Positions 12,501-38,889 of a stretch of 64,000 bases of DNA are shown here, one piece after another; the first letter of the stretch is position 1, and every line of letters starts with the position of its first letter. The DNA lies in NCBI GenBank assembly GCA_000004695.1, contig CM000150.2:160001-224000 (forward strand), given 5' to 3'. The position numbers and the translations under genes were made by a program. The DNA is from Dictyostelium discoideum (taxonomy: Eukaryota). The notes under the pieces were generated by a model that ran no database searches, was not told the DNA's origin, and saw nothing but the letters and a program-made list of their open reading frames with translations.

Positions 12501-13828
12501 ATAATACCTAAATCTATAAATTTGATAACCATTTCTTCGACATGTCTCTTATGATCATCTGTTGAATAATAGATTTGTTTCTTTGTTGGTTCAACATCTT
12601 GATCTTTCTTTATTATGATATTATGTATGATATTACCTCTTCTGGAATTGTTAATCTGATCTGGAATATCAGGAAGTTTATCTACTATAACATCTTCGAA
12701 TGAATCATTAATGAAATCACGTACTGCTTGTATCTCTTCTTCTTCTGGATTAGTTTTAACCAGTATATCACAAAGTTGTGATGGGATGCTTTCAACAAAC
12801 TTTGTAACTTGTTCTTTGATATCTTCATCATCATCTAGTAGATTATGTGACTGTGACTGATTATCATTGGATACGGTAACATGTTTTCTTGGAGCTTTTA
12901 CATTACAATGTAATTGATTCGACTGTTGATAATTAATTTTGTATGTACTGTTATTCAACTTGATTATTTTATCTTTTTGGTTAATGATAGAGTCCTTAAG
13001 GATATCATTACCGAAAAGTACATCAATGATATCCAATTCTATAATAAAGAAGTTATGAATTTCATTGTTAACTTGTATATTGATTTGTTCAACAAACTCT
13101 TCTTTGACGTCTAGTAGCGGGAAGTTAATCTTGGCTTTCGTTTTGTGAACGTGGTTCTTCATATCTTTTGAAATCAACCTCTTATTGATTAAACTAACAT
13201 TACTTCCAGTATCGAGAATTAATTTGAATTGTTTTTCTTTGGAATGAGAGTTAATTATAATCTTGGGTTTATCCATGTTTTCTCTGTTTGGAACGATTAA
13301 ACATTTTAGAGTCGGAATGAGAGCAGTATCACTTGTACCAGTACTATGTAATAATGAGATGATTGGTTTGTTTGTTTCTTTATCGAATTTAATTGTGTAA
13401 AGCAATTCATCTTCTTCATCATTAATTAATTCTTTACTAGAATTTAATATCTTTGGACGATTGAATATGTTAACAGTATAGTTTTTATCTTGAACATTTG
13501 TTAACTCTGTTGGAGTATTAAATTCAATCTTCTGTGGTTTATACTTCATCTCTGATTCAACAGCTTTTGGAATTGGAACGGTTGTATCAGGAACTAGTTT
13601 TATACCATATGAGTCTTTGACGTATTCTTTAAGTTTGTTGATGTTTTTATGAACATCATGTTGCTGGCTTTGTTGATGTAACTGTTTAACAATGTTTTGA
13701 TTATAAAAAGAGTTAAGAGTATAAAGTGAATCTTTGTTCACTGGGTAATCATTATCCTCAAGGTGATGATATTGTGAAATTTTATAATTTTTATTTAAAA
13801 TCTTTGACTTGGACTCATCACCTTCATC
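9548..13828 (-). CDS. pol: Skipper pol, copy 2.
   Basis: 1397 aa ORF almost identical to copy 1 (a few substitutions, e.g. R to C). Confidence 0.85.
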   Translation of the reverse strand, partial: DEGDESKSKILNKNYKISQYHHLEDNDYPVNKDSLYTLNSFYNQNIVKQLHQQSQQHDVHKNINKLKEYVKDSYGIKLVPDTTVPIPKAVESEMKYKPQKIEFNTPTELTNVQDKNYTVNIFNRPKILNSSKELINDEEDELLYTIKFDKETNKPIISLLHSTGTSDTALIPTLKCLIVPNRENMDKPKIIINSHSKEKQFKLILDTGSNVSLINKRLISKDMKNHVHKTKAKINFPLLDVKEEFVEQINIQVNNEIHNFFIIELDIIDVLFGNDILKDSIINQKDKIIKLNNSTYKINYQQSNQLHCNVKAPRKHVTVSNDNQSQSHNLLDDDEDIKEQVTKFVESIPSQLCDILVKTNPEEEEIQAVRDFINDSFEDVIVDKLPDIPDQINNSRRGNIIHNIIIKKDQDVEPTKKQIYYSTDDHKRHVEEMVIKFIDLGIIKRSESNYSSPIMLLKKRDSWCVVHDYRQLNKVTVRDDHPFTPVDSLLNQCKDSKLFSKFDMIMGYFQVLINPEHAKYTAFITHIGKFEYTRMPQGLVNSPSTFARLMVEIFGKIKSLLQYFDDLLVHSKLDYMVHFIEIIRMLLYCRKYLLFISREKSEMLKTEVDFLGFHIHKDGISPRAAKVRAISELPEPRNAKEAEAALGLFGFFRRHIENYAEKTYHLSKESKGKNKKTLSDESLKEFNNLKKEFEGENIVAIPIEQDNSIPIDIEKVKASTDMPIHSDNNNLNNGSFHLYCDVSDKALSGVLYQIQGNKFKVIWFHSRKLTDTQKRYSIGDREFLSIIDSLKKFQHLLIGKKVSIYTDHQNLTYIINKSNDKPFTKRQDNYMKYIKEFDYELRHISGKKNGIADFLSRKYDNFQWDESFLNKIKEEQINSQWLLEMKKNPNLCIEEINDICYLSEDGFKKLIIIDKETIHTVIREYHDTKYSGHHALDITYNNIRQDYYFKEMFSIIKRYIKSCATCQLNINRKDNGILQSLEIPFEVWRDISIDFLSLPKTMYAINGFTVEVDQVCVIVCRLSKMVHIVPCHKTIDAQHTAQLLLNHVFRLHGYPRTIVSDRDPRFLSEIWERWAKTMDSKLKMTVAHRAQADGQTERMNREIIRILTKASTEYGENWSDIIPLIEFAMNSSMSKSTKMSPFQIVYGFNPPTPVNHFNSLTKTRIPMSNIKKIVRDNILDAQINAQKYYNRGRGDVIFVVGEKVMVKRKFFQTNLSKDLISHKLESKNCGPFIITAVHGNNVTLDLVGYPKKHNVFNKDQIVKLYEDSEWLREEISMPEPEEMDEASYEVESILNHDKVKKMYLVKFKGYPEPEWIKEVDTDCEELVREYWNNVQKKQLNSRRERENVTTEAVEPIVSPPLSQEVQSSQTLQPITPRQQNSISNQRNQSKKRKSRNQNTSSDDDELDLSLQIKTTRSGRKVTPKSL

Positions 13829-13831
13829 GAG

Positions 13832-14493
13832 TCATTGTTGCTTTTTGGCTGATGGACCTGGATTGGCTTTGGCATCGACCGGATCAATTCTACATGTAGA
13901 TGTGGAGTGATTTGATTTACCACAATTGAGACAGTAGCCTTTGTTTTGACGGTAAACGATGAAACTGCTTCTTATCTTTTTGAGGTCTACCTTAGAGTCT
14001 TTTCTTATTTCGGGTAATATTGCAGCTCTAATCTTATCAGCTTGAGCATCAAAGGAATTCCTGTTATGAGAGTTATGATTTGGAGTAGCATGATTCTTTT
14101 TTAATAGAAACTTCTCATCAGTATTCGATGCAGAATCGGAAGGTCTTCTTCTCGAGAACTTATCAGCATTGTTAAGAACCAACTCGGTGATGGCTTCACG
14201 ACACTCGGTGATATCGGTTTGAGTGTTGAGTTTGATTGCAACATCAGTTTGTAACCAGTCTGGTACGACCATCTTTAACAAAGCAAGGATATTATTATCT
14301 AAAATTGATCTTAGATACTCTAATTGAACTTCAGCAGTACCATGGATGAGATACACCGGATTAATTACATTGTGGTAACTCATAATGGCTTCGATGTTTT
14401 TTATAACATCTTGGGCTGAGTAGCAGTTACGATGGTTAATAGCTTCGACTACTTTAGTGTTGGCAGCTTCGTAGTCAGTTTTGAATGGAACCA
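13832..14493 (-). CDS. gag: Skipper gag, copy 2, N-terminally truncated by an assembly gap.
   Basis: The C-terminal 220 aa are identical to gag copy 1. The ORF runs into the N run. Confidence 0.7.
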
Positions 14494-14593
14494 NNNNNNN
14501 NNNNNNNNNNNNNNNNNNNNNNNNNNNNNNNNNNNNNNNNNNNNNNNNNNNNNNNNNNNNNNNNNNNNNNNNNNNNNNNNNNNNNNNNNNNNN
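14494..14593. other. Assembly gap (100 N).
   Basis: Run of N characters. Skipper gag lies on one side and DIRS-1 ORF1 on the other. Confidence 0.99.
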
Positions 14594-15476
14594 TGGCATT
14601 ACTATTGCTACTGTTTCCTGTAGTGTTATTACCACTTGAGTTAACTGATTTCTTGACATTGGACTTGGAATGATAATTCAATTTTAACAATGATTGTTTA
14701 GCTTCGTTGTTCTTTCTGATTGACTTGGCTAGCTTTCTTACACGTTCAGTTTCAGTTTCATCAAACATCTTTGGTGTATCCTTGATCTTAATTGGTAAGA
14801 GTACTTCAGAACCATAGATTTCTTTAGCGATGTTGTTACGACGGACACGACTAAGCGATGCTTGAGCATTAACGGCTAAGACGATTGCACTCTGAGTTAA
14901 ATAACTAATAAGTTCTACATCGACATTAGAGCTATCAGATGATAACATACTTGACATGAGAAGCAAAGGTTTTAAGCTATCGTTGATTCGCTTTTCGACA
15001 ATCAACAAGTCAGTATCATTGTTCTTGACGTTGGATGATACAGAAATACCTTCAGGTGTACCGAATGGAGCGACATTCACTTGGATGTGAGATGGAAAGT
15101 TGAATACTTTATTCAATGCGGATATCTTATCTTTCTTGAGTACATTCTTCGACAAGTGAAAACCTATTGTTTACCATATGTTTGTACTGACCAAGTAAAG
15201 TATCGGATAATTGATAATCGGTTGGAACATCGACATTGTTACTTGATTCATCTTCACTTTGTTCATTCTCGGTGTCAGAGTTATCATGAGAAGGTTGGCT
15301 ACGTGAATTGGTATTATATGAGAACATAGGTTCTTTCATGAATCTAGTAAAGGCTAAGGAAAGGTTGTTGATTTGATCCTCCATTGATTTCATTCTTAAA
15401 TCAAAGGATTCAGCGCTATTAAAGGCAGAGGTATTGCTACTAAAGGCTTCATATTATTATTATCAGTGGTAGACAT
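14594..15476 (-). pseudogene. DIRS-1 ORF1 (gag-like) carrying a frameshift. Its 3' end runs into the gap.
   Basis: The ATG at 15476 opens MSTT(D)NNN...MKSMEDQINNLSLAFTRFMKEP...HMVNN, then a frame break near 15160, then VAPFGTPEGISVSSNVKNNDTDLLIVEKR... This is homologous to the ORF1 copies at 18462 and 24608. Confidence 0.7.
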
Positions 15477-19574: not shown

Positions 19575-20290
19575 ACCTATAAACACAGCAAAGAAAAATG
19601 CACCTTTAAAGCAAATTTAAAGTAAAGTTGATTTAAATTGGATTTAAATTGAATTTAAAGCCGCGTTTAAAAAATTCATTTTTAAGGTAATTTTTAAGGT
19701 AATTTTTAAGATATTTAAAAATGCCTTTAAAATTTGCTTAAAAATTTATTTTAAAGGTAATTTTAAAGGTGATTTTTAAGGTAATTTTTAAAATGATTTT
19801 TAAGATATTTAAAAATACCTTTAAAATTTATTTTAAATTAATTTTAAATAGGATTTAAAGTAGATTTAAAGTAGATTTAAAGTGAATTTAAATTTCCTTA
19901 ATATATAAATTTAAGGTTTTTAATAAAAAAGATCTAATTATAGATAAAAAAAATGGGGATAAAATATTCTATCATTTTTAAATTTTCATCAAAGCAATCA
20001 AATGGTCGGGGGATCGAATCCCTTTTGGTAATTTTTGAAAAAATTAAAAAAAAAAAATTTAAAAAATTTATCCGTTAAATAACGGCTTCGAACTCAGGAC
20101 CTCGCTTTTAAAGCGATTAAAAAGGTAATTTTAAAGGTAATTTTAAAGGTAATTTTAAAGGTGATTTTAAAGTAACCTTAAAAATTACCTTTCAAATTAC
20201 CTTTAAAATTGCTTTAATTCAGGACTTTAAAGCAAATTTAAATTTAATTTAAAGCGAATTTAAAGGTGGTTTTTTCTTTGCTGTGAAATA
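19575..20290. mobile_element. Non-autonomous MITE-like derivative of the CACTA-like element (about 716 bp). Termini are CACAGCAAAGAAAAATGCACCTTTAAAGCAAATTTAAA and its reverse complement; subterminal repeats are present, and an internal tRNA-like module is deletion-bearing.
   Basis: Perfect terminal inverted repeat seen directly (19575 cacagcaaag ... 20290 ctttgctgtg), flanked by AAA/AAA. Partial copies occur at 20636-21191, 32762-33135, 35500-35920 and 37640-37920. Confidence 0.65.
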
Positions 20291-20635
20291 TTTTGCTTTT
20301 TTTTTTTTTTTTTTTTTTTTATTATTTTTTTTTACCAACACATAACGACTCTTCCTTACTTATAATATATAAGCAAATAACATTAAAAAAATTGTTAAAT
20401 TATTTACATAACTTTTACGTAAAAACGAACGGATTTTTATTTTTATTTTTATTTTTTTTCAATTTTTTTTTTTTTTGTTTCGGTTATTATTTTTCAGACT
20501 TAAATTATTATTTATAAATTAAATATAAAAAATAATATTGCATCATCTGGAAATGGTAATTATTTAAATTGATATTATCCAACTTCGCTTATTTTAAATA
20601 AAAATGAAACTGCACTAAATCAAAACTGGTAAGGT

Positions 20636-21191
20636 AAGATGATTTTTAAGGTAATTTTTAAGATAATTTTTAAGATATTTAAAAAATACCTTTAAAATTT
20701 ATTTTAAATTAATTTTAAATAGGATTTAAAGTAGATTTAAAGTATATTTAAAGTGAATTTAAATTTCCTTTAAGTATAAATTTAAGGTTTTTAATTAAAA
20801 AGATCCATTTTTAGATCAAAAAAATGGGGATAAAATATTCTACCATATTTAAATTTTCATCAAAGCAATCAAATGGTGTAATGGTTGATGAGACTATCCT
20901 TTGATAGAGGGTCGGGGGATCGAATCCCTTTTGGTAATTTTTGAGAAATTAAAAAAAAAAATTTTAAAAAATTTATCCGTTAAATAACGGCTTCGAACCC
21001 AGGACCTCGCTTTTAAAGCGATTAAAAAGGTAATTTTAAAGGTAATTTTAAAGGTAATTTTTAAGGTGATTTTAAAGTAACCTTAAAAATTACCTTTAAA
21101 ATTACCTTAAAAATTGCTTTAATTCAGGACTTTAAATTCGCTTTAAATTAAATTTAAATTTGCTTTAAAGGTGGTTTTTTCTTCGCTGTGT
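20636..21191. mobile_element. 5'-truncated copy of the same MITE-like element, ending in ...GGTGGTTTTTTCTTCGCTGTG.
   Basis: Collinear with 19700-20290 and contains the full 73-nt tRNA-like module. Confidence 0.6.
20865..20937 (+). ncRNA. tRNA-like pol III module (73 nt) carried inside the MITE. It has an A-box-like TGGTGTAATGG, a B-box/T-arm GGGGGATCGAATCCC, an Ile-type anticodon stem-loop (ATCCT TTGATAG AGGGT), and a T5 terminator right after it. The acceptor stem does not pair, so I read it as tRNA-derived, not a bona fide tRNA.
   Basis: Seen in the sequence. Copies lie at 19994-20031 (internally deleted) and 33018-33090 (minus strand, anticodon loop TTAATAG). Confidence 0.4.
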
Positions 21192-21897: not shown

Positions 21898-22569
21898 GAA
21901 TCCATACACAGCGAAGAAAAAACCACCTTAAAAGCAAATTTAATCTAAAAAAAAAACAAAAAAAGTATTATTTTAGATTTCTTCAACTTCATCAATAATA
22001 TCAATGCTTTCAAAACCAATCACCAGTTCTTTTAAAATAAATTGATACTACAATTAAATAATAGCTGGTAAGTTAATATAATTTTTTTTTAAAAAAAAAA
22101 AAAATTAAAAAAAAAAAAAAAATAAATAATAATAATAAAATAAAATAGATAGACTAATTTGAAAAATAATAATTATATTTTAGGTTACCTTTCTTATTAT
22201 ACCAACAACCACTTCTTTTCAATCAAATTGATACTTCACTTATATAATAACTGGTAAGTCAATATAATTTTTTTTTTTTAAAAAAAAAATAATAATATAA
22301 AATAAAGAGATTAATATAATTTAAACAATTATATTTTAGGTTGTTTCTTCTTTTATTAGAACCTGTAAAGTAAATGCTTTTGGTACAAATTATAATGGAA
22401 ATAAAGTTCTGCTTTTCAAATTAGTCAATTATAAATGTTGTATTACCATTAAATAAAAAAAATTTCTGATTTCAAATACTTTTACTTTTTAATTAATTCT
22501 TTTTTTTTTTTTTTTTTTTTTAAATTTATTTTAAATTATTATTATAAAATGTTATTTTTAATTTTTATT

Positions 22570-31517: not shown

Positions 31518-31680
31518 TTAAAGGTGGTTTTAAAGGTGATTTTAAAGGTGATTTTAAAGGTCATTTAAAAAATTGCTTTTAAATTAATTTTTAAGTGACT
31601 TTTTTATAGGACTTTAAATCCACTTTTAATTTAATTTAAAGTTGCTTTAAAGGTGTAATTTTCATCGCTGTGTATTAATA
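31518..31680. repeat. Right-hand subterminal repeats and terminus (...GTGTAATTTTCATCGCTGTG) of the CACTA-like element. The 5-bp TTAAA at 31518-31522 duplicates the one at 2503-2507.
   Basis: The repeat phase continues from 2507 across the Skipper array. The terminus resembles the MITE termini. Confidence 0.55.
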
Positions 31681-31796
31681 ATGCTACAAAAATAAATAAA
31701 AAAAATTTAAAAATTATTTTAAAACTATAGTATTAAATAAAATTTTATGTGAACAATAAAATACACAGATATATTATTTTTTAATAATAAAATTTA

Positions 31797-32089
31797 TTTT
31801 TAAAGTAGAAACTTTTATTGGGAAGAATTTAAGTAAAGTGCAGAATGAGGAAATTGAAAAGCTTCTTGTGCATCTTTTCTCATTTTAGCCTTAGAGTCAA
31901 ATTTACTACTAAAATCATTTAATATTGAAATTAATCTCTTTATTAAAGGAACTGAATCTGGGTACCAGTGTGACTCTTCACCTGTTTTACAAGAGTCAAC
32001 AAACTCTTTTATGAAAATATCATTTTGATAATTTTCATAATTAATGTGGCTGAGAAAAAGAGAAAGTAAAGCAGGGGAAAACAGTATTT

Positions 32090-32139
<50 letters not shown>

Positions 32140-32761
32140 TATTTTGTAAATTTTGATTATATTAATTTATACACACTATTTCATTACCAAAAAATACTTG
32201 GCTATCGGAAATATAAACTTTAAGATTGTGGTTTTTTTCACCTTTTGAATAAATGGCTAAACTGTCAACTACTTTTGTTCTTGTGTTACTATCCTTATTA
32301 CTTACCCATTTTGTTAACCTTGCAAAAATATTTTGACTGGTACAATCTTCGTTACTACCACCAGCTTGTTTAATTATTCCAGTAATAAAGAAATTTGAAA
32401 CCTATTTATTTAAATTTATTAATTTTTTTTTTTTTTTTTTTAAAACTATTAATCTGGTAACATACATCGCCATCTGAATAGTATTTACTTTGACAAACTT
32501 TCTGAAGACTTTCGTATTCCAATATGTATGTTACACGTGGGTTTGTGGCTATTTGCACTGTTTCTTGGATTGGTGGAACAGTTGGCCTTTGAACTCTTCT
32601 AATTATTATTCTCTGGTTTTCCATTGGGTTTGGAGCATTTCAATTTCCTAATACATTACCTATTGACAAATTATTAACTGATTCATCTCCGATAGAAATA
32701 TTATTGTTTGTTCTTCTTTGGATTGGTGATTGGTTAAAATCAGGTACATTACCATTTGGTG
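31797..32761 (-). pseudogene. Inverted, 5'-truncated copy of the 3-exon gene at 1143-2112. It has an in-frame stop (GCA to TGA) in exon 1 and is cut in exon 1 by a MITE terminus at 32762.
   Basis: The reverse complement matches 1190-2235 at over 95%. ORF 32406..32624(-) reproduces ...MENQRIIIRRV(Q)RPTVPPIQETVQIATNPRVTYILEYESLQKVCQSK. Confidence 0.6.
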
Positions 32762-33135
32762 CTACACAGCGAAGAAAAAACCACCTTTAAATTCGCTTTA
32801 AATTAAATTTAAATTTGCTTTAAAGTCCTGAATTAAAGCAATTTTAAAGGTAATTTTAAAGGTAATTTTTAAGGTTACTTTAAAATCACCTTAAAAATTA
32901 CCTTTAAAATTACCTTTAAAATTACCTTTTTAATCGCTTTAAAAGCGAGGTCCTGAGTTCGAAGCCGTTATTTAACGGATAAATTTTTTAAAATTTTTTT
33001 TTTTAATTTTTCAAAAATTACCAAAAGGGATTCGATCCCCTGACCCTCTATTAAAGGGTAGTCTCATCAACCATTACACCATTTGATTGCTTTGATGAAA
33101 ATTTAAAAATGATAGAATATTTTATCCCCATTTTT
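32762..33135. mobile_element. Fragment of the MITE-like element (terminus CACAGCGAAGAAAAAACCACC at 32762) carrying the tRNA-like module on the minus strand.
   Basis: Reverse-complement match to 20860-21191. Confidence 0.6.
33018..33090 (-). ncRNA. tRNA-like pol III module (73 nt), the probable target of the adjacent TRE5-A insertion.
   Basis: Minus-strand sequence GCAATCAAATGGTGTAATGGTTGATGAGACTACCCTTTAATAGAGGGTCAGGGGATCGAATCCCTTTTGGTAA followed by TTTTT. The TRE5-A A-module starts about 48-51 bp upstream of its 5' end. Confidence 0.4.
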
Positions 33136-33138
33136 TTG

Positions 33139-33403
33139 GAGATCGAAAAAAACAAACAACAACAACAATCTCTTTTTTTGATTATTTCATTTTTCATATA
33201 AAAAAGACTTAAAAAACAAATAAATAAATAAATAAACTATTTTAAAAAGCCATCTTTTTACTTTATTGTAATTTATTATTTGTTTCGTTTTGAGAATTTT
33301 GCGTAGCAAAATTTTCAAAAAAAAAGCAAAAAATAATCAGATCGAAAAAAACAAACAACAACAATCTCTTTTTTTGATTATTTCATTTTTCATATAAAAA
33401 AGA

Positions 33404-33439
<36 letters not shown>

Positions 33440-35146
33440 GGAACCCAAGTTAATCAGAAAATTTCCAGATTTTTAACTTTTTAAAGAAAAATAAAAAAAA
33501 TAGAAAGAAAATAAGATGAAAATCACAAACAACACCACAAATATTAAGCAACACAAATGCCTACAAAAAATAAGCGAAATTGTGGATAAAACTCAATTAA
33601 AAAAAAAACAATTCAAATACGTCATAAACATCAATCACGAACCAGACGATAAAATAAAAAAAGATTTAGAAAAAAGTTTGGACAAAAAAGATGTTTTAAT
33701 CAAAAGTAATAATACATTCAAAATTCTCACAGACAGTATTAGTACAGTAATCTATTTTGTAAATATGTTTGATGCAGAATTAAAAGGACAATTTATAACC
33801 ACTATAAGACCAAAAAATATGTATACAGATTTTGATTGGTATAAATCACTCACAGAAATAGAATGGGTAATAGAAAATGAAGGATGTAAACTAATTAAAT
33901 TAGAAATTAAAGGCGAAACTCTAATTATCAAAACAGTGAAAAGAGTCGTAGAAGAATTTGACACTATCATTGAACTAGACAATCTAACATTAATTGGACA
34001 CTCCAACAAAGGATGGAGAGATCAAACCTCATTACCAGAAAATCAAGAAGAAAACAAAAATAAAAAACAATCAGATGAACAACAACCACAATCTACATCA
34101 GAACAAATACCAAAACAAGGAAAAAGAACAATCATTATCCCACCAATCACATCCTCATCTAATGATAAAACATTTATGGCCCTAGATGATACAGCTCAAA
34201 AGGTAATAGAAGCATCACTAGAAAACGTAGATGAACTAACAAGAATAGAGAATGAGATCAATACACAATCGATAAACAATCAAGAAATTAAAACAAAATC
34301 AGAAAAACCTATCGAACCACCATCTCCATACAATACACCAATAAAACAACACGGCGAAACAAAGGGACTAACAACGGAAGAAAAACTTAGAGAGGCAAAT
34401 GATATCTTCGACTTCACCAGCCCAAACACTGATGCAATAAGAAAAATAGAATTCCCACTTTCAATCCCTTCAAATCAATGGTTCTTCTCCTCTCCAATAA
34501 AACATATCATGAGTTTCAGCCCAACCTATGGTACACCATCGAAAATTATCGATTCACCAAGTAAATTGTTAAACACACCAAAAAAGAAACAACAAGACAA
34601 AACAAACAAGACCAACAAAACACCAGTCAAACCAAAATTGGGTGAATATGGACAAAAAAGCATAAAAACAAAAATGGATGAAGATATAGACAACTTCAAC
34701 AAGGAAATTCTAAAACAAATCAATAAATCAAAAAACCCCACAAACACACAAGACCAACAACACAACGAACAAAGTAAAGATCAGTTAGAAGACAAAATAA
34801 ACCAGAAACTTCAAAAGGTAGATAAAAATCTACCCCAAATAAAACTATAAAGAAAAACACAATAAGAATAGGTGTTTGGAACATCCAAGGATCCAACACC
34901 ATCCAATCTGCCAGCATAATAAACACCGTTTTAGACAACAACAAGCTGGACGCAGCACTTCTAACTGAAACAAATATAAAAACAAATAAAATTTACTCAA
35001 TAAATCAACAATATAAAAACAAAATAACACACCACGCACCAATTGATAAAACAGGACAAGGGGTGTCACAAATCATCATCAACACCCGCAATAGAACTTC
35101 CTAAACATCTCAAAAAATACAATAATTCACTCAGTACTTTCTATAA

Positions 35147-35201
<55 letters not shown>
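33139..35201 (+). mobile_element. TRE5-A (DRE)-type tRNA-gene-targeted non-LTR retrotransposon, a deletion derivative. It has one and a half copies of the 199-bp A-module (33142-33340, 33341-about 33415), a B-module, ORF1, the first 250 bp of ORF2 (APE-type endonuclease N-terminus), then a poly(A) tail.
   Basis: A 199-bp direct repeat is visible. ORF1 is 33516..34850 (444 aa). Downstream in another frame the sequence reads ...NTIRIGVWNIQGSNTIQSASIINTVLDNNKLDAALLTE (the L1/APE endonuclease start) and then breaks into A45 at about 35150-35201. Its position 48 bp upstream of a pol III module is the TRE5 hallmark. Confidence 0.65.
33516..34853 (+). CDS. TRE5-A ORF1.
   Basis: 444 aa ORF directly after the A/B modules. 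The same N-terminal 62 aa recur at 35246. Confidence 0.6.
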
Positions 35202-35204
<3 letters not shown>

Positions 35205-35446
35205 CAAGTTAATCAGAAAAATAAAAAAGATAGAAAGAAAATAAAATGAAAATCACAAACAACACCACAAATATTAAGCAACACAAATGCCTACAAAAAA
35301 TAAGCGAAATTGTGGATAAAACTCAATTAAAAAAAAAACAATTCAAATACGTCATAAACATCAATCACGAACCAGACGATAAAATAAAAAAAGATTTAGA
35401 AAAAAGTTTGGACAAAAAAGATGTTTTAATCAAAAAGACCCTGTAA
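35202..35446 (+). mobile_element. Second TRE5-A 5' fragment (B-module end plus the first 66 codons of ORF1).
   Basis: 35202-35440 is nearly identical to 33470-33710. ORF 35246..35446 reads MKITNNTTNIKQHKCLQKISEIVDKTQ... Confidence 0.6.
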
Positions 35447-35499
35447 AAAAAAAAAATAAATAAAATGAGATCTAGCATCTCAAGGAGAAGCAAATAATA

Positions 35500-35920
35500 A
35501 TTGCGTTATCCAATTCAAAAAAAAAATATCCCCATTTTTTTGTTCTAAAATTAGATCTTTTTTATTAAAAACCTTAAATTTATGTTTAAAGGAAATTTAA
35601 ATTCACTTTGAATCTACTTTAAATCTACTTTAAATCCTATTTAAAATTAATTTAAAATAAATTTTAAAGGTATTTTTAAATATCTTAAAAATTATCTTAA
35701 AAATTACCTTAAAAATCACCTTTAAAATCACCTTTAAAATTGCTTAAAAAATTATTTTAAAGCAAATTTTAAAGGCATTTTTAAATATCTTAAAAATTAC
35801 CTTAAAAATTACCTTAAAAATGAATTTTTTAAACGCGGCTTTAAATTCAATTTAAATCCAATTTAAATCAACTTTTCTTTAAATTTGCTTTAAAGGTGCA
35901 TTTTTCTTTGCTGTGTAACC
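35500..35920. mobile_element. MITE-like element fragment (inverted orientation) ending in ...AAAGGTGCATTTTTCTTTGCTGTG at 35920.
   Basis: Reverse-complement match to 19600-19990, including the ggggataaaatattct and subterminal repeats. Confidence 0.6.
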
Positions 35921-35958
35921 AATCATTTGGTACTACAAATAATAATAATTTATTATTT

Positions 35959-36984
35959 TTATTCATTTCCAATATAATTTTCTATATCCAGCATTATAGA
36001 ATAATCTTTCTTGTTTTGACACTGCATACTATCAGTGAATATTCTAAGTAAAACAATTTTATTTTTATTTTTATTTTTTAAATCTTTAAATTGTTGACCA
36101 CTTTTATAATTTGTATAAATTCCAGTTTCAAAATCTGTATCAAAATCTATTCTTTCAAAAAATTGCTTTTTATTTAATAAAGTTTCTAATACTTTTTTAA
36201 TTTCAAAATAAAAAATTGAGTGATCATAATTTTTATTTATAAATGTTTCTCCTTTTATTTGAAAATCTTCCATAAATAATTTATCCATATATTGAGGTGT
36301 GTATCTTATTTGATTTAAATTGGTTTTATTTTTGTCAATAAAACTTTTAAATTTTTCAAGTAGCTTTAAACTTATTGAGTTTTCAATTCCCAACATTAAA
36401 AATTCAATTTCAGTTTCATTTAATTTTTTTTTTGATTTTTCATTATCTAAATTATTATTTAGATTATTATTTATTGGTTCGTTTTGAGCATTTTCATTTT
36501 CATTATTTTCATTATTTTCATTATTAATGTTTGCTTCATTTTCATCTATTCTAATTTCATTGTTTTCATCTTCACTATGTACCAACCCAATTATATCATG
36601 ATTTTCTTCATTATCAATTGTTTGATTGTTTTCATTATTTTCATTATTTTCTTGATAAAAAATTTCATCTTGGTTTTGGTTACATAAATGTTTACATGGG
36701 TCATCTGGATCATTTGTTGGATATTTTATTTTTTCACCAGTAATATCCATTAATTTTTTATAAAAGCTATCTCTTTTTTGATTATTTGTAATAATTTTAT
36801 TTTGTTCATTTTTACATTTTTTGGTGTTGAAATGTCCATTTACATCATAAAATTGTTTATAAGAACGGTAATATGCAAGACAAAATGGACATATATTTTT
36901 ATGCATAATATAATGAATAATAATATTTTTAAAATTCTTTAATTTTTCTCTGCAATTAATGCATGATATGTTATTTAAATTCAT
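35959..36984 (-). CDS. C2H2 zinc-finger protein (341 aa) with an acidic N/E-rich linker. It belongs to a repeated family whose copies abut CACTA-like termini.
   Basis: CINCREKLKNFKNIIIHYIMH (C-x2-C-x12-H-x3-H) followed by CPFC...H. The C-terminal 90 aa are homologous to the pseudogene at 21192-21897. Confidence 0.5.
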   Translation of the reverse strand: MNLNNISCINCREKLKNFKNIIIHYIMHKNICPFCLAYYRSYKQFYDVNGHFNTKKCKNEQNKIITNNQKRDSFYKKLMDITGEKIKYPTNDPDDPCKHLCNQNQDEIFYQENNENNENNQTIDNEENHDIIGLVHSEDENNEIRIDENEANINNENNENNENENAQNEPINNNLNNNLDNEKSKKKLNETEIEFLMLGIENSISLKLLEKFKSFIDKNKTNLNQIRYTPQYMDKLFMEDFQIKGETFINKNYDHSIFYFEIKKVLETLLNKKQFFERIDFDTDFETGIYTNYKSGQQFKDLKNKNKNKIVLLRIFTDSMQCQNKKDYSIMLDIENYIGNE

Positions 36985-37639
36985 TTTGTTTGCTGGCTGG
37001 AAATTAAAAATAATATTTTTTTTTTTTTTTTTCCTCGAGTTTTTACGTTTTTTTTTTTTTTTTTTTTCATTTTATTCAAATTTTAGCATTATAGCAAGTA
37101 GATATATGATTTAGTACTTAGAATTTTATATTTAGAGGGATATACCCCATTTTCAAAAAATGACGGGGAACCTATGACCCTGTCTATACCTTTTTCTTTT
37201 TAAAATATTAAAAAAAAAAACTATAAAATCTGCCCAATTTATTGTAAAACTACACTAATGCAATAATATACATGTGCACTCGTTAATTGTTTATTAATTA
37301 TAAAAAATAAAAAATAAAAAATCTTTTTTTATATGTATGTTTATACTTATAATATAAATATGCAAAACAAATAATTAAATTTTTTTTTTTTTTTTTTTGA
37401 TATTTTTCGCTTTTTGAAATGAGAAGTAAAATTTAAAATAACATAATATAAAACCCAAGGCAACTGAAACACTTATTTATTATTAATTAATAAAAATAAT
37501 AATAATAGAATTCAATTGCCACTGAAACAAATAAATAAAGAATTAAAATTAATTTGGTTATCTTTTTAGTTTTTTTTTTTTTTAATTTTCTTAATTTTTT
37601 TTTTTTTTTATTTTCTTATTTTTTTTTTTTTTTTTTATT

Positions 37640-37920
37640 AAATTTGGAATAAATAGTTATTTTAAAGGTGCATTTTTCTTTGCTGTGTAATTTTAAATTA
37701 CATTAAAAATAACTTTTTTAAATTTATTATAAAGTGATTAAAACATTATTTAAAAACCGCTTTATAATAAATTTAAAAGGTCATTTTTAATATAATTATA
37801 AATGACCTTAAAAATATCTTTAAAATTACCTTTTTAAAAAGCAAATTTAAAGCCAATTTAAAGCAAATTTAAATTGTATTTGCTTTAAATTGGCTTTAAA
37901 GGTGCATTTTTCTTTGCTGT
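37640..37920. repeat. Two solo CACTA-like termini/short fragments in the same orientation (ending at 37689 and 37920).
   Basis: AAAGGTGCATTTTTCTTTGCTGTG occurs twice. Confidence 0.5.
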
Positions 37921-38889
37921 GCAAAAATGAATAATAAAAAATACTACATACATTAGGTTTATTTTTTGCAAAGTCGGAAACAATATTCATATTTTCTTAC
38001 CAAAAGTTTGATTTAAATAAATAAATTTATTAATTGAACTAAGATTATCACTAAGATTTAATACATTTAAAAAAAAAAAATTAAAAAATATAAAAAAAAA
38101 AGTTTTTATTTTTTATTTTTTATTTTTTTTTTTATCAGGAAAAAAAATAAAACAAATAATAATAACAATACTAGTAATCAATATAAAATCAATAAATTTT
38201 ATTTAAATAGAAATGAAATATTAAAATTATACCACTAGATTTTTTTTTAAAAAAAAAAAAAATAAAAAAATAAAAAATAAATAAAATAAAAAATAAATAA
38301 AAAAAAAACAAGAAAAACCATCAATAAAATGACATTTAAAACAAAATGAAATTTCAAAGAGAATTAAAAATGAAAATTAAAAAGTATTCCTGTAAAAATG
38401 GAATTTAATTTTAATTTTAATGGTATTAAAATGTTATATCTTGATTTGATTGGTCACAGCAAATGATATAAAATATATTTCCAACTCGTTTTTCTTCAAA
38501 ATAAAACAATTAAAAATGAAAAATTATCAAACACTCCAAATTATTTATTATTAAAAAAAAATAAAAAAAAAATTTTAGGAAAAAGAATTATTTTAATTTC
38601 CATTATTTTAATTTTTAAATTTTATATAATTTTGTGTATTTGTGACTGCTCAATTTATCCTATTTATCTGATTTAGATTATTTTTTTAGGTTTAAAAATA
38701 TTTCTTAACACCAACCCAATTATTTATTTGAAATATTTGAAAGGATTTAAATAAGATAACAAACTTTGATCTGAACTGTTATTGTTATTATTACCACTAT
38801 TATTAAAATTGTTTGAATTATCTAGAGGCTACAAAGAATTTTTAAAGATTGAAAAAAAATTTAATATTCCTTCTATTGTTATTTCAAAA

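Follow-up and report, generated by a model that had tools for sequence, protein, structure and literature searches.

The window analysed here spans 64 kb (64,000 nucleotides) of chromosome 1 of Dictyostelium discoideum AX4 and is densely packed with nested transposons. Very probably, some of these are DDT DNA transposons that harbour the decayed form of a tRNA gene, and the promoter boxes of this gene still attract tRNA-targeting retrotransposons. The argument depends on the structure of the carrier element, on the promoter layout of the tRNA-like module in its interior, and on the positions at which retroelements have inserted beside that module.

The repeat family and its mobility

The carrier belongs to a family of DDT-S-like repeats, which are about 750 bp long, non-coding and bounded by terminal inverted repeats (TIRs) with CACAGC(A/G)AAGAAAAA tips. 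The window holds the following members and related pieces.

19584-20285, + strand: copy A, a DDT-S-like non-autonomous transposon of 702 bp with both TIRs, target site duplication (TSD) AA/AA and a 35-bp internal deletion
19584-19621, + strand: left TIR of copy A, with tip CACAGCAAAGAAAAA; its partner arm is at 20248-20285
20636-21190, + strand: copy B, 5'-truncated, element positions ~207-749, with the right TIR tip at 21176-21190
21036-21111, no strand assigned: subterminal hairpin of copy B, near-perfect, with 12-bp repeats (AAGGTAATTTTA)n
32765-33138, - strand: right half of copy C/D, with the module at 33013-33101 inside
35543-35915, - strand: left half of copy C/D, with the TIR tip at 35901-35915
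21907-21944, + strand: TIR that opens a longer DDT-family element and matches the right TIR of copy B at 97% identity
31518-31672, + strand: right-end fragment of a diverged DDT-type element, cut short by a Skipper-type LTR
37650-37921, - strand: solo DDT TIR (tip 37687) and, after it, a small diverged fragment of DDT type at 37688-37921
35959-36984, - strand: DDT-associated zinc-finger open reading frame (ORF) DDB_G0268476

An earlier note on this DNA had placed a 716-bp element with perfect 38-bp TIRs at 19575-20290. A member of the repeat family does lie at essentially those coordinates, within the slightly narrower limits of copy A, but its TIR arms are perfect for only 15 nt from the tip and are identical at 31 of 38 positions (43 of 60). 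Across the five full copies with these tips the arms share 27-31 of 38 positions. The second copy, described as 5'-truncated at 20636-21191, is borne out almost to the nucleotide, and carries a 41-bp segment (21130-21170) in inverted orientation relative to the other copies. The third, given as 32762-33135, is a genuine minus-strand family match but merely the right half of an element: copy C/D is complete, and its two halves flank a 2.39-kb TRE5-A.2 retrotransposon at 33139-35527.

Full copies measure 702-774 bp and none has an ATG-initiated ORF longer than 51 aa, in agreement with the earlier view of the element as non-coding. All seven copies for which flanks were compared have 2-bp TSDs (AA, TA, CA, AC, GA, TA and TT). 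Insertion polymorphism, which had been proposed as a check, is represented by one filled and empty pair, in which an element at 20176-20923 of locus L005 is missing from the corresponding site at ~2104-2106 of the window. Further copies, likewise sought, number at least 12 across the window and loci L005, L007 and L013, in several assemblies; the module-bearing copies sampled are only about 12, every one from a transposon-rich locus. In these respects the element behaves as a MITE, and the copies are very probably non-autonomous members of the D. discoideum DDT family that move by cut and paste. The CACAG tips and 2-bp TSDs only hint at a CACTA/Mirage-like superfamily. The ~750-bp element is most probably the DDT-S published in Glockner 2001, to which it is linked through the literature (Barth 2022). 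The thug-S and thug-T families, of which thug-S has hairpins that give miRNAs, were considered and dropped, as Barth 2022 ties the A/B box to DDT-B.

The subterminal hairpin of copy B has a counterpart with the same 12-bp repeats in copy A (20131-20206), and these are probably transposase-binding repeats. The hairpin also gives a weak mir-548-like match in Rfam. Neither the spacer between copies A and B (20286-20635) nor the sequence to the left of copy A has a match in the other sequences compared.

A candidate autonomous partner is suggested by the sequence around copy C/D. In intact copies the DDB_G0268476 ORF runs on into the gene segment found at 31673-32764, which is repeated at 1165-2267; copy C/D is nested in this gene. 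Window ORFs of 444 and 341 aa are 98-100% identical to D. discoideum AX4 proteins encoded on the 4.92-Mb contig of chromosome 1, and Pfam scans of the DDT-associated proteins find no transposase domain. The longer element at 21907 has a different, intron-bearing internal sequence; neither it nor the fragment at 37688-37921 shows the module in the sequence that is present. Related left ends occur in the DDT gene-bearing loci L009-L011, and no module is found in them.

A probable decayed tRNA gene inside the element

The module and its parts are laid out as follows.

20854-20942, + strand: module of copy B, from the 5' box to the T5 run
20854-20864, + strand: 5' box of copy B, TTTTCATCAAA, followed by the +1 G at 20865
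20874-20884, + strand: A box of copy B, TGGTGTAATGG, matching TRRYNNARYNG
20896-20914, + strand: anticodon-like hairpin of copy B, ATCCT-TTGATAG-AGGGT
20917-20927, + strand: B box of copy B, GGATCGAATCC, in the T-arm; the T5 run is at 20938-20942
20989-20999, - strand: inverted second B box of copy B, GGTTCGAAGCC, in a piece resembling a tRNA 3' half
33013-33101, - strand: module of copy C, with the +1 G at 33090, A box at 33071-33081 and B box at 33028-33038
19983-20036, + strand: module remnant of copy A, with the 5' box TTTTCATCAAA, G at 19994, B box at 20011-20021 and a T5 run

The module lies in the interior of the element, at positions ~423-511 of about 750, and its position is constant among TIR-bounded copies with unrelated flanks. 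Every part of the unit of about 73 nt read earlier in copies B and C can be located, namely the A box, the B box with its T-arm, the Ile-type anticodon hairpin and the T5 terminator, and in both copies the acceptor stem is indeed unpaired. The hairpin of copy C is ACCCT-TTAATAG-AGGGT, so that the two copies read GAT or AAT. Copy A has the inverted second B box at 20085-20093, and copy C at 32957-32965. Copy A has suffered a 35-bp deletion between GGT microhomologies (junction ~20003-20006) that removed the A box and anticodon arm; its module therefore keeps only the B box of the two. This is the sole loss of the A box, as the sampled intact D. discoideum copies all retain both boxes.

The module can be compared feature by feature with tRNA genes of this species. 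Its 5' box TTTTCATCAAA is the box found upstream of the real D. discoideum tRNA genes examined. Its A box, TGGTGTAATGG in D. discoideum and TAGTATAATGG in D. cf. discoideum, conforms to TRRYNNARYNG in both. Its B box, GATCGAATC, lies 44 nt from the A box and has one mismatch (T54A) to GTTCRANNC, and the same GATCGA-type variant occurs in the genuine D. discoideum genes for tRNA-Arg-TCT and tRNA-Ala-AGC, the former being itself a TRE5-A.2 target (locus L001). The distance from the +1 G to the A box is 9 nt (10 nt in D. cf. discoideum) and not the usual 7. Searched with the published A/B consensus expression, the window gives just two sites, those of copies B and C, against a shuffle mean of 0.28, and GGWTCRANNCC occurs 7 times where 0.68 are expected. 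The permissive A/B expression also matches DIRS-1 coding sequence elsewhere.

As a tRNA, the module is not recognised. ARAGORN calls no tRNA in the window or in loci L005, L007, L008, L012 and L013. Rfam gives no match in the window at its gathering threshold and, at E<=10 over 2 kb, nothing but mir-548-like hairpin matches. When the Rfam tRNA model is applied to 101 nt of the module, the alignment runs from end to end with 12.4 bits, compared with a threshold of 29. Folding yields no cloverleaf (z-score about -0.4), whereas a control tRNA folds correctly, and the module resembles none of seven D. discoideum tRNAs with which it was compared. A call of a normal tRNA-Ile had been named as grounds for abandoning the reading of a hybrid between a DNA element and a Pol III unit; since neither ARAGORN nor Rfam makes that call, the reading is left standing. 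The module is very probably a decayed tRNA gene, which has lost the ability to yield a tRNA and has retained its promoter features, and from these features it would be predicted to bind TFIIIC and TFIIIB and to be transcribed by Pol III.

Retrotransposons inserted at the module

The TRE5-A.2 insertion that divides copy C/D comprises two features.

33139-35527, + strand: TRE5-A.2 non-LTR retrotransposon that has an oligo(A) tail and, as its sole ORF, ORF1 (33516-34850, 444 aa)
33124-33138 and 35528-35542: its 15-bp TSD, ATCCCCATTTTTTTG

This TRE5-A.2 is head-to-head to the module and 48 nt upstream of the +1 G (50 nt when measured from the point 7 nt before the A box). As controls, a 99% identical TRE5-A.2 lies 46-48 nt upstream of five genuine tRNA genes, for tRNA-Arg, Gly, Pro, Val and Lys, in loci L001-L004 and L006; the distances agree within 2 nt, as do orientation and TSD. 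A second kind of element behaves comparably. A 4.96-kb LTR element, whose LTR is followed after 2 bp by the DGLT-A primer-binding signature TGGCGACATCG, is found 11-12 nt upstream of the module in both D. cf. discoideum (L008/L012) and D. discoideum (L013), and a related LTR element ends 15 nt upstream of a tRNA-Asn gene in D. citrinum (L014). The earlier suggestion that such elements attract tRNA-targeting retrotransposons is thus supported by TRE5-A.2 at -48, by DGLT-A-type elements at -11/-12, and by controls at those distances.

How many independent events do these represent? The DDT-S::TRE5-A.2 composite recurs at a second locus with its boundaries at the TIR tips, and the two TRE5-A.2-bearing copies descend from one insertion. 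The DGLT-A insertions of D. discoideum and D. cf. discoideum may likewise be one old event, and there may therefore be just two independent hits. The two flanks of the window composite are ~610 bp apart in intact copies of the gene. A clean insertion of the composite with a TA TSD was rejected on this ground, and deletion or recombination between two copies must have been involved; its TA/TA flanks may be coincidental, because of the 610-bp target deletion.

Conservation between species

In a single cross-species comparison, of D. discoideum with D. cf. discoideum, the block CGGGGGATCGAATCCCTTTTGGTAA is 100% identical, and the 25-nt B-box block is 100% identical compared with 64% overall. The 5' box, A-box consensus and B box are kept in both species, and the inverted second B box of D. 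cf. discoideum is the B-box consensus itself (GTTCGATTC). Anticodon and acceptor pairing are not preserved, the D. cf. discoideum module having a C4-to-G change without compensation, and the flanking sequence diverges. Other parts of the element also reach 70-80% identity in the same alignment. Within D. discoideum, variable columns make up 9% of the module and 17% of the rest of the element, a marginal difference (p=0.047). A metagenome scan for exact matches to the conserved 24-mer gave none.

Proposed explanation and alternatives

We propose that a tRNA gene was captured by a DDT element as DNA, together with its 5' flank; capture as DNA is argued by the inclusion of the 5' box, which is untranscribed or leader sequence. 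The element, with its CACAGC(A/G)-type TIRs and subterminal 12-bp repeats, would presumably be mobilised in trans. Retained with it were the 5' box, the +1 G, the A box, the GATCGA-type B box and the T-run. TFIIIC bound to the boxes would place TFIIIB upstream, and to retrotransposons that read the TFIIIC/TFIIIB complex the module would resemble an active Pol III gene, with TRE5-A integrating ~48 nt and DGLT-A ~11-15 nt upstream. By such mimicry DDT copies would turn into landing pads, and a retroelement that has landed in one could later move along with the DNA transposon.

Could the association have arisen otherwise? That the A/B-box likeness is chance in AT-rich DNA, and the adjoining retrotransposons coincidental nesting in a transposon graveyard, is very unlikely. 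The TRE5-A.2 insertion agrees with its five tRNA-gene controls, a second retroelement class keeps to the distance that is canonical for it, the boxes are accompanied by the species-specific 5' box and by a +1 G, motif counts exceed those of shuffles, the boxes are conserved between species, and a tagged TRE5-A has integrated de novo at the A/B box of DDT-B (Barth 2022, PMC9012585); against these stand the dense packing of the window with nested elements and the DIRS-1 match to the permissive expression. An internal A/B-box promoter with a T-run is also what tRNA-derived SINEs possess, but a SINE or other retroposed element with incidental inverted ends is extremely improbable, given an internal rather than 5'-terminal module, the absence of an A-rich or simple-repeat tail, the defined TIRs, constant 2-bp TSDs and empty/filled pair typical of DNA transposition, and a 5' box that points to DNA capture. 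An ordinary host tRNA-Ile gene or pseudogene, with the surrounding repeats coincidental, is effectively refuted and carries practically no weight: its GAT or AAT hairpin and full-length alignment to the Rfam model are outweighed by the null results of ARAGORN and of Rfam at the gathering threshold, by the lack of a cloverleaf, and by a constant internal position in an element that takes the module to unrelated flanks.

A different matter is whether the module works for its carrier. It might be a selected part of DDT. As a chromatin boundary dependent on TFIIIC it could keep the element ends open to access, or it could drive a short Pol III RNA that DDT mobility requires or is regulated by; the attraction of retrotransposons would then be a side effect. 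The preservation across species of the 5' box, A box, B box and inverted B box while flanks and RNA pairing diverge, the fully identical B-box block, and the presence of both boxes in every sampled intact D. discoideum copy except copy A, which lacks the A box, are consistent with such a role, and the same question is raised by Barth 2022 (PMC9012585). Yet the comparison between species is a single one in which other element parts are likewise 70-80% identical, the signal within species is marginal, the predicted RNA has neither a stable nor a conserved fold, copy A shows that an A box can be lost, and two other DDT pieces lack the module in the parts present. We consider this alternative possible but rather unlikely.

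We therefore favour the DDT transposon with a decayed tRNA gene that draws in retrotransposons, for the reasons given above. It can be extended, tentatively, to a module with both roles: a maintained functional organ of DDT, recruiting TFIIIC/TFIIIB to protect or mark the element end or to produce a short Pol III transcript, and a mobile decoy tRNA gene that offers TRE5-A and DGLT-A safe landing sites and later re-mobilisation as passengers. The first role is suggested by the conservation of the boxes in both species and implies that the module may benefit DDT; re-mobilisation is suggested by the composite, present at two loci with its boundaries at the TIR tips. We hold this extension to be speculative and doubtful as it stands.

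D. discoideum is the model for how retrotransposons persist in a haploid, gene-dense genome, which they do by homing to Pol III genes. A DNA transposon with a decoy tRNA promoter would provide them with more targets and would link DNA transposons and retrotransposons mechanistically; it may also help to account for tRNA-targeted elements in centromeric clusters. If the organ and decoy reading is true, it describes a previously undescribed route by which tRNA-targeted retroelements enter centromeric transposon clusters. Handles on the role of the module for DDT are provided by the conservation of the boxes, the 5' box, the DGLT-A-type hits and the composite at the second locus.

Comparison with known systems

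Like the tRNA-derived SINEs, the element has an internal Pol III A/B-box promoter from a tRNA gene. SINEs, however, spread by retroposition, begin with their promoter, have an A-rich tail and are flanked by TSDs of variable length, whereas the element here has TIRs, 2-bp TSDs and an internal module. The earlier characterisation of an unusual hybrid, MITE-like in its ends and SINE-like in its core, is right in that a TIR DNA element has the promoter layout of a tRNA gene; "SINE-like core" is too strong, since the element moves as DNA and holds the module in its interior, and a hybrid of this kind has already been published.

The extra-TFIIIC (ETC) sites and chromosome-organising clamps of yeasts contain a B box, bind TFIIIC away from functional tRNA genes and can serve as chromatin boundaries. 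ETC sites usually have no A box and no TFIIIB, and they are not known to be carried by transposons. A B box outside a functional tRNA gene is what they share with the DDT module.

Spaller 2017 (PMC5391098) defines target sites by an A box TRRYNNARYNG, a B box GTTCRANNC 30-60 bp away and a +1 G 7 bp before the A box, with TRE5-A 37-50 bp upstream in a fixed orientation. The TRE5-A.2 at the copy C/D module, head-to-head at 48 nt, falls within this distance and orientation; the +1 G spacing of 9 nt departs from the 7 given. The A/B-box loci of the rDNA in the same work (PMC5391098) likewise have a +1 G and A and B boxes at 30-60 bp without a tRNA, with TRE5-A ~45-50 bp upstream, and are proposed to be sites of Pol III complex assembly. 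They differ in being immobile and in having no further similarity to tRNA, whereas the DDT module has a T-arm, an anticodon-like hairpin, a 5' box, a T-run and a DNA transposon as its carrier.

DDT-S, DDT-A and DDT-B (Glockner 2001, Genome Res, cited in PMC5633606 and PMC4559204) are D. discoideum-specific putative TIR DNA transposons, whose proteins are not known to resemble any transposase and whose family has a small non-coding member. The closest counterpart is DDT-B, of the same species and transposon family, in which Barth et al. 2022 (PMC9012585) describe an A/B-box motif and, 46 bp upstream of it, a natural TRE5-A.2, as well as a new tagged TRE5-A integration at that A/B box, leaving its role for DDT as a question. 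That an A/B box in DDT is targeted by TRE5-A is therefore already known (PMC9012585). There, too, the A/B box lies within ~430 nt of a DDT end, and the TRE5-A.2 is beside DDT gene sequence, so that the window shows a very similar arrangement; here the carrier is a complete, TIR-bounded, non-autonomous element of ~750 bp on chromosome 1. That paper does not report the 5' box or the +1 G, a second B box in inverted orientation, an insertion of DGLT-A type, conservation in D. cf. discoideum, TSDs of 2 bp, or a second locus with the composite.

Genomic setting

The window is low in G+C (20-30%) and dense in mobile elements, including two Skipper-like copies of a Ty3/gypsy pol (1397 aa) with gag (387 aa) and DIRS-type RT/RNase H/methyltransferase ORFs. 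Because two exact products, DDB_G0268476 and DDB_G0267494, are both of AX4 chromosome 1, and mobile elements are so dense, we assign the window to a transposon cluster on D. discoideum chromosome 1. An ORF at 33516-34850 (444 aa) is 98-99% identical to several D. discoideum AX4 proteins. Three assembly gaps lie inside Skipper-like and DIRS-like elements, and around them the order of repeats given in the reference may be unreliable.

35959-36984, DDB_G0268476
57763-58365, DDB_G0267494
14494-14593, 26470-26569 and 31308, N runs

A small element that moves as a DNA transposon

Three families of DNA transposons are named in the D. discoideum literature: Tdd, DDT and thug. The ~750-bp element studied here, a non-coding repeat bounded by terminal inverted repeats (TIRs), is most probably DDT-S, the small DDT member. 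The repeat family is real, its copies being recovered by both blastn and a repeat finder:

19584-20285, copy A
20636-21190, copy B, beginning at about element position 207
32765-33138, minus strand, copy C, right half of the element only
35543-35915, left half of the copy C element, parted from the right half by a 2.39-kb insertion

The earlier note had placed copy C about correctly, but the copy is not whole and its partner half had been missed. Nor are the TIRs perfect over 38 bp, as had been claimed: the arms of copy A are perfect for 15 nt (CACAGCAAAGAAAAA) and identical at 31/38 and 43/60 positions, and other full copies reach 27-31/38. The absence of coding capacity holds, with a longest ATG ORF of at most 51 aa across full copies. 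Copy A has lost its A box and anticodon arm through a 35-bp deletion between GGT microhomologies. Copies beyond the window were found as full-length elements of ~750 bp in three D. discoideum loci fetched via neighbouring proteins (L005, L007 and L013).

The element moves as a DNA transposon. A 2-bp direct repeat (AA, TA, CA, AC, GA, TA, TT) flanks every copy with both ends readable, and a filled site at L005 20176-20923 (GA/GA) has an uninterrupted paralogue in the window at ~2104-2106 (TTGGGAAGAAT); this empty/filled pair fixes both the termini and the 2-bp duplication. A longer element from 21907 has a 97% identical TIR and a different, intron-bearing interior, and L009-L011 hold gene-bearing relatives whose left ends are similar. 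The DDT-associated zinc-finger proteins are restricted to D. discoideum and D. cf. discoideum. A Pfam scan matched them to no family, in agreement with the report that Dictyostelium DNA-transposon proteins are unlike any known transposase (PMC5633606).

Several structural features of individual copies were also seen. A subterminal 41-bp segment of copy B (21130-21170) is inverted relative to copies A (20225-20265) and C, with 100% complementarity and with short inverted CTTTAAA/TTTAAAG repeats at its edges. At L013 two DDT-S copies lie tail-to-tail, at 12862-13610 (+) and 13611-14333 (-), with a third, diverged copy overlapping 14003-14732, which indicates that copies nest locally there. The 12-bp subterminal repeats fold as a near-perfect 76-nt hairpin (20131-20206 and 21036-21111) with a weak mir-548-like Rfam score (36-39 bits vs 90). 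The thug-S hairpins of D. discoideum are known miRNA sources, and by analogy the DDT hairpins might be a source of small RNA.

The tRNA-like module

Copies B and C contain the tRNA-like unit, here called the module, as the earlier note described it, with an unpaired acceptor stem; the anticodon-type hairpin carries GAT in copy B and AAT in copy C. The tRNA-finder check that the note proposed, run with ARAGORN and the Rfam tRNA model, called no normal tRNA. ARAGORN made no tRNA call in the window or any element-bearing locus, Rfam at gathering thresholds gave no match in the window, and the module alone aligned end to end with the Rfam tRNA model at only 12.4 bits, where the threshold is 29. 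RNAfold gave the module no cloverleaf and a stability not above that of shuffles, whereas a control tRNA-Arg folded correctly. The module is not a tRNA; it reads as a decayed tRNA gene with its promoter layout intact.

The A box, TGGTGTAATGG, matches the stringent D. discoideum consensus TRRYNNARYNG, and the B box, GATCGAATC, 44 nt away, has one mismatch to GTTCRANNC (consensus sequences from PMC5391098). Its GATCGA variant also occurs in genuine tRNA genes of D. discoideum, those for tRNA-Arg-TCT and tRNA-Ala-AGC. The fetched tRNA genes of D. discoideum and D. citrinum (L001-L006, L014) have in common a 5' box, (T)TTCATCAAA, immediately before the +1 G; in the module, TTTTCATCAAA directly precedes a G, with 9 nt from this G to the A box, against 7. 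Most of these tRNA genes also have an extra B box on the same strand 25-35 nt downstream; that of the DDT module is inverted and ~60 nt away. The window contains GGWTCRANNCC 7 times, with 0.68 expected. The strand complementary to the module carries a tRNA 3'-half-like piece, with CGCTTTAAAAGCG as a hairpin, AGGTC as a variable-loop motif and GGTTCGAAGCC as a perfect B box, but without a T-stem partner. A permissive regular expression for the A/B arrangement found only the two modules in the window (shuffle mean 0.28) and, in the other loci, real tRNA genes, modules and a coincidence in DIRS-1 coding sequence, where a conserved stretch probably fits by chance.

20085-20120, 20990-21025 and 32930-32965, tRNA 3'-half-like piece
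L007 14498-14556; L009 19935-19994; L011 4370-4429 and 14861-14920; L013 2017-2076, A/B match in the DIRS-1 tyrosine-recombinase coding region

Aligned between D. discoideum and D. cf. discoideum, the element shows ~64% identity and the module 78-85%. CGGGGGATCGAATCCCTTTTGGTAA is unchanged, the A box differs in D. cf. discoideum (TAGTATAATGG) yet stays within the consensus, and the opposite-strand second B box, ~60 nt downstream, is GTTCGAAGC in D. discoideum and GTTCGATTC in D. cf. discoideum, with its consensus kept; pairing in the anticodon arm and the partial acceptor pairing are lost. Within D. discoideum, variable columns make up 9% of the module and 17% elsewhere (p=0.047). This suggests that it is the DNA boxes that are constrained and not an RNA fold, although one cross-species pair is not decisive.

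Retrotransposons at the module

The insertion that splits copy C matches the published TRE5-A.2, the ORF2-less derivative of TRE5-A, whose integration is fixed in orientation and falls ~47 bp upstream of tRNA genes (PMC5391098; PMC9012585).

33139-35527, TRE5-A.2 insertion, ORF1 only with an oligo(A) tail
33124-33138 and 35528-35542, its 15-bp target duplication, ATCCCCATTTTTTTG

The 5' end, GAGATCGAAAAAAAC, points toward the module, whose +1 G (33090) is 48 nt away. Six fetched loci encoding an identical ORF1 served as controls. In five, a 99%-identical element lies head-to-head with a tRNA-Arg, Gly, Pro, Val or Lys gene, 46-48 nt upstream of it; the sixth, L005, has no tRNA and carries the same split transposon instead. 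The earlier suggestion that such elements attract tRNA-targeting retrotransposons thus agrees with the spacing at genuine tRNA genes. Within the window insertion, 33139-33400 contains a ~200-bp tandem duplication (33139-33230 resembles 33340-33430), consistent with a duplicated A-module, and L006 has a tandem pair of TRE5-A.2 upstream of a single tRNA-Lys gene.

A second retrotransposon class is found at the same module. A 4.96-kb LTR retrotransposon interrupts the homologous transposon of D. cf. discoideum at L008, an arrangement duplicated in L012.

L008 2207-7167, L012 7331-12290 and L013 7859-12854, DGLT-A-type LTR elements

The L008 element has 389-bp LTRs (99% identical, TG..CA ends), a gag-PR-RT-RNH-IN coding region with no chromodomain match, and, 2 bp past the left LTR, TGGCGACATCG, the DGLT-A primer-binding signature (PMC5006619). 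Its right LTR ends 11 nt from the module +1 G. In D. discoideum L013 a related element (80-86% identical) lies in a DDT copy at that same nucleotide, which would put it 12 nt away from the G; its right LTR is truncated by another DDT-S, whereas the D. cf. discoideum element is complete. AX4 has been published as having no full-length DGLT-A. A genuine tRNA-Asn-GTT gene of D. citrinum (L014) has the end of a related element 15 nt upstream of it; published distances are 13-33 bp (mean 15) for DGLT-A and 10-19 bp for related D. purpureum elements (PMC5006619). The coincidence of position in two species means either that the composite is old and shared or that targeting was precise and repeated. 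Two Pol III-directed retrotransposon classes have inserted at the module at their canonical positions.

How did the composite of DDT-S and TRE5-A.2 come to exist twice? The right half, TRE5-A.2 and left half at window 32765-35915 recur at L005 9248-12392, on a different chromosome-scale contig, with 98.5% identity and, homopolymer lengths aside, the same TRE5-A junction and target duplication site. Similarity ends exactly at both TIR tips; the flanks share no relation, and CA/CA borders the L005 copy. Most simply, TRE5-A.2 inserted first and the DNA transposon carrying it moved later; the alternative is that gene conversion between copies made the second composite. In the window, both flanks of the composite belong to one DDT-associated gene.

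Window 35916-37100 and 31673-32764; L007 9889-11440; L009 9900-11620, gene flanking the window composite

In intact copies these flanks are ~610 bp apart, and a deletion or recombination has therefore also taken place at the window composite. Recombination, if such it was, would have joined two DDT-S copies, and the TA/TA flanks may be coincidental.

Relation to known elements

Because TRE5-A integration requires a functional B box and its ORF1 binds TFIIIB subunits (PMC5391098), TFIIIC probably binds the module and places TFIIIB upstream. Each intact copy would then be a mobile decoy tRNA gene, and the T5 run right after the module would stop a Pol III transcript at ~75-80 nt. We think it less likely than not, though conceivable, that DDT maintains the module as a functional part of itself and that the module is also a vehicle for retrotransposon hitch-hiking. 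Apart from the TIRs and the completeness of copy C, the observation in the earlier note was largely right, and its interpretation is supported by direct sequence evidence and the tRNA-gene controls.

In the accessible literature we found no mention of a 5' box with +1 G at the module or of its inverted second B box, nor of DGLT-A-type elements inserted there, conservation between species, a 2-bp duplication with its empty site or the recurrence of the composite. The core finding is already published for the DDT family, since Barth et al. (2022) described an A/B motif targeted by TRE5-A in DDT-B: a natural TRE5-A.2 lies 46 bp upstream of this motif in a rearranged DDT-B fragment, and a new tagged TRE5-A integrated at the same motif, whose relation to DDT-B replication they left to be determined (PMC9012585). 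The locus in the window, with TRE5-A.2, a DDT end bearing the A/B box and DDT gene sequence in that order, is closely similar to the one they described.
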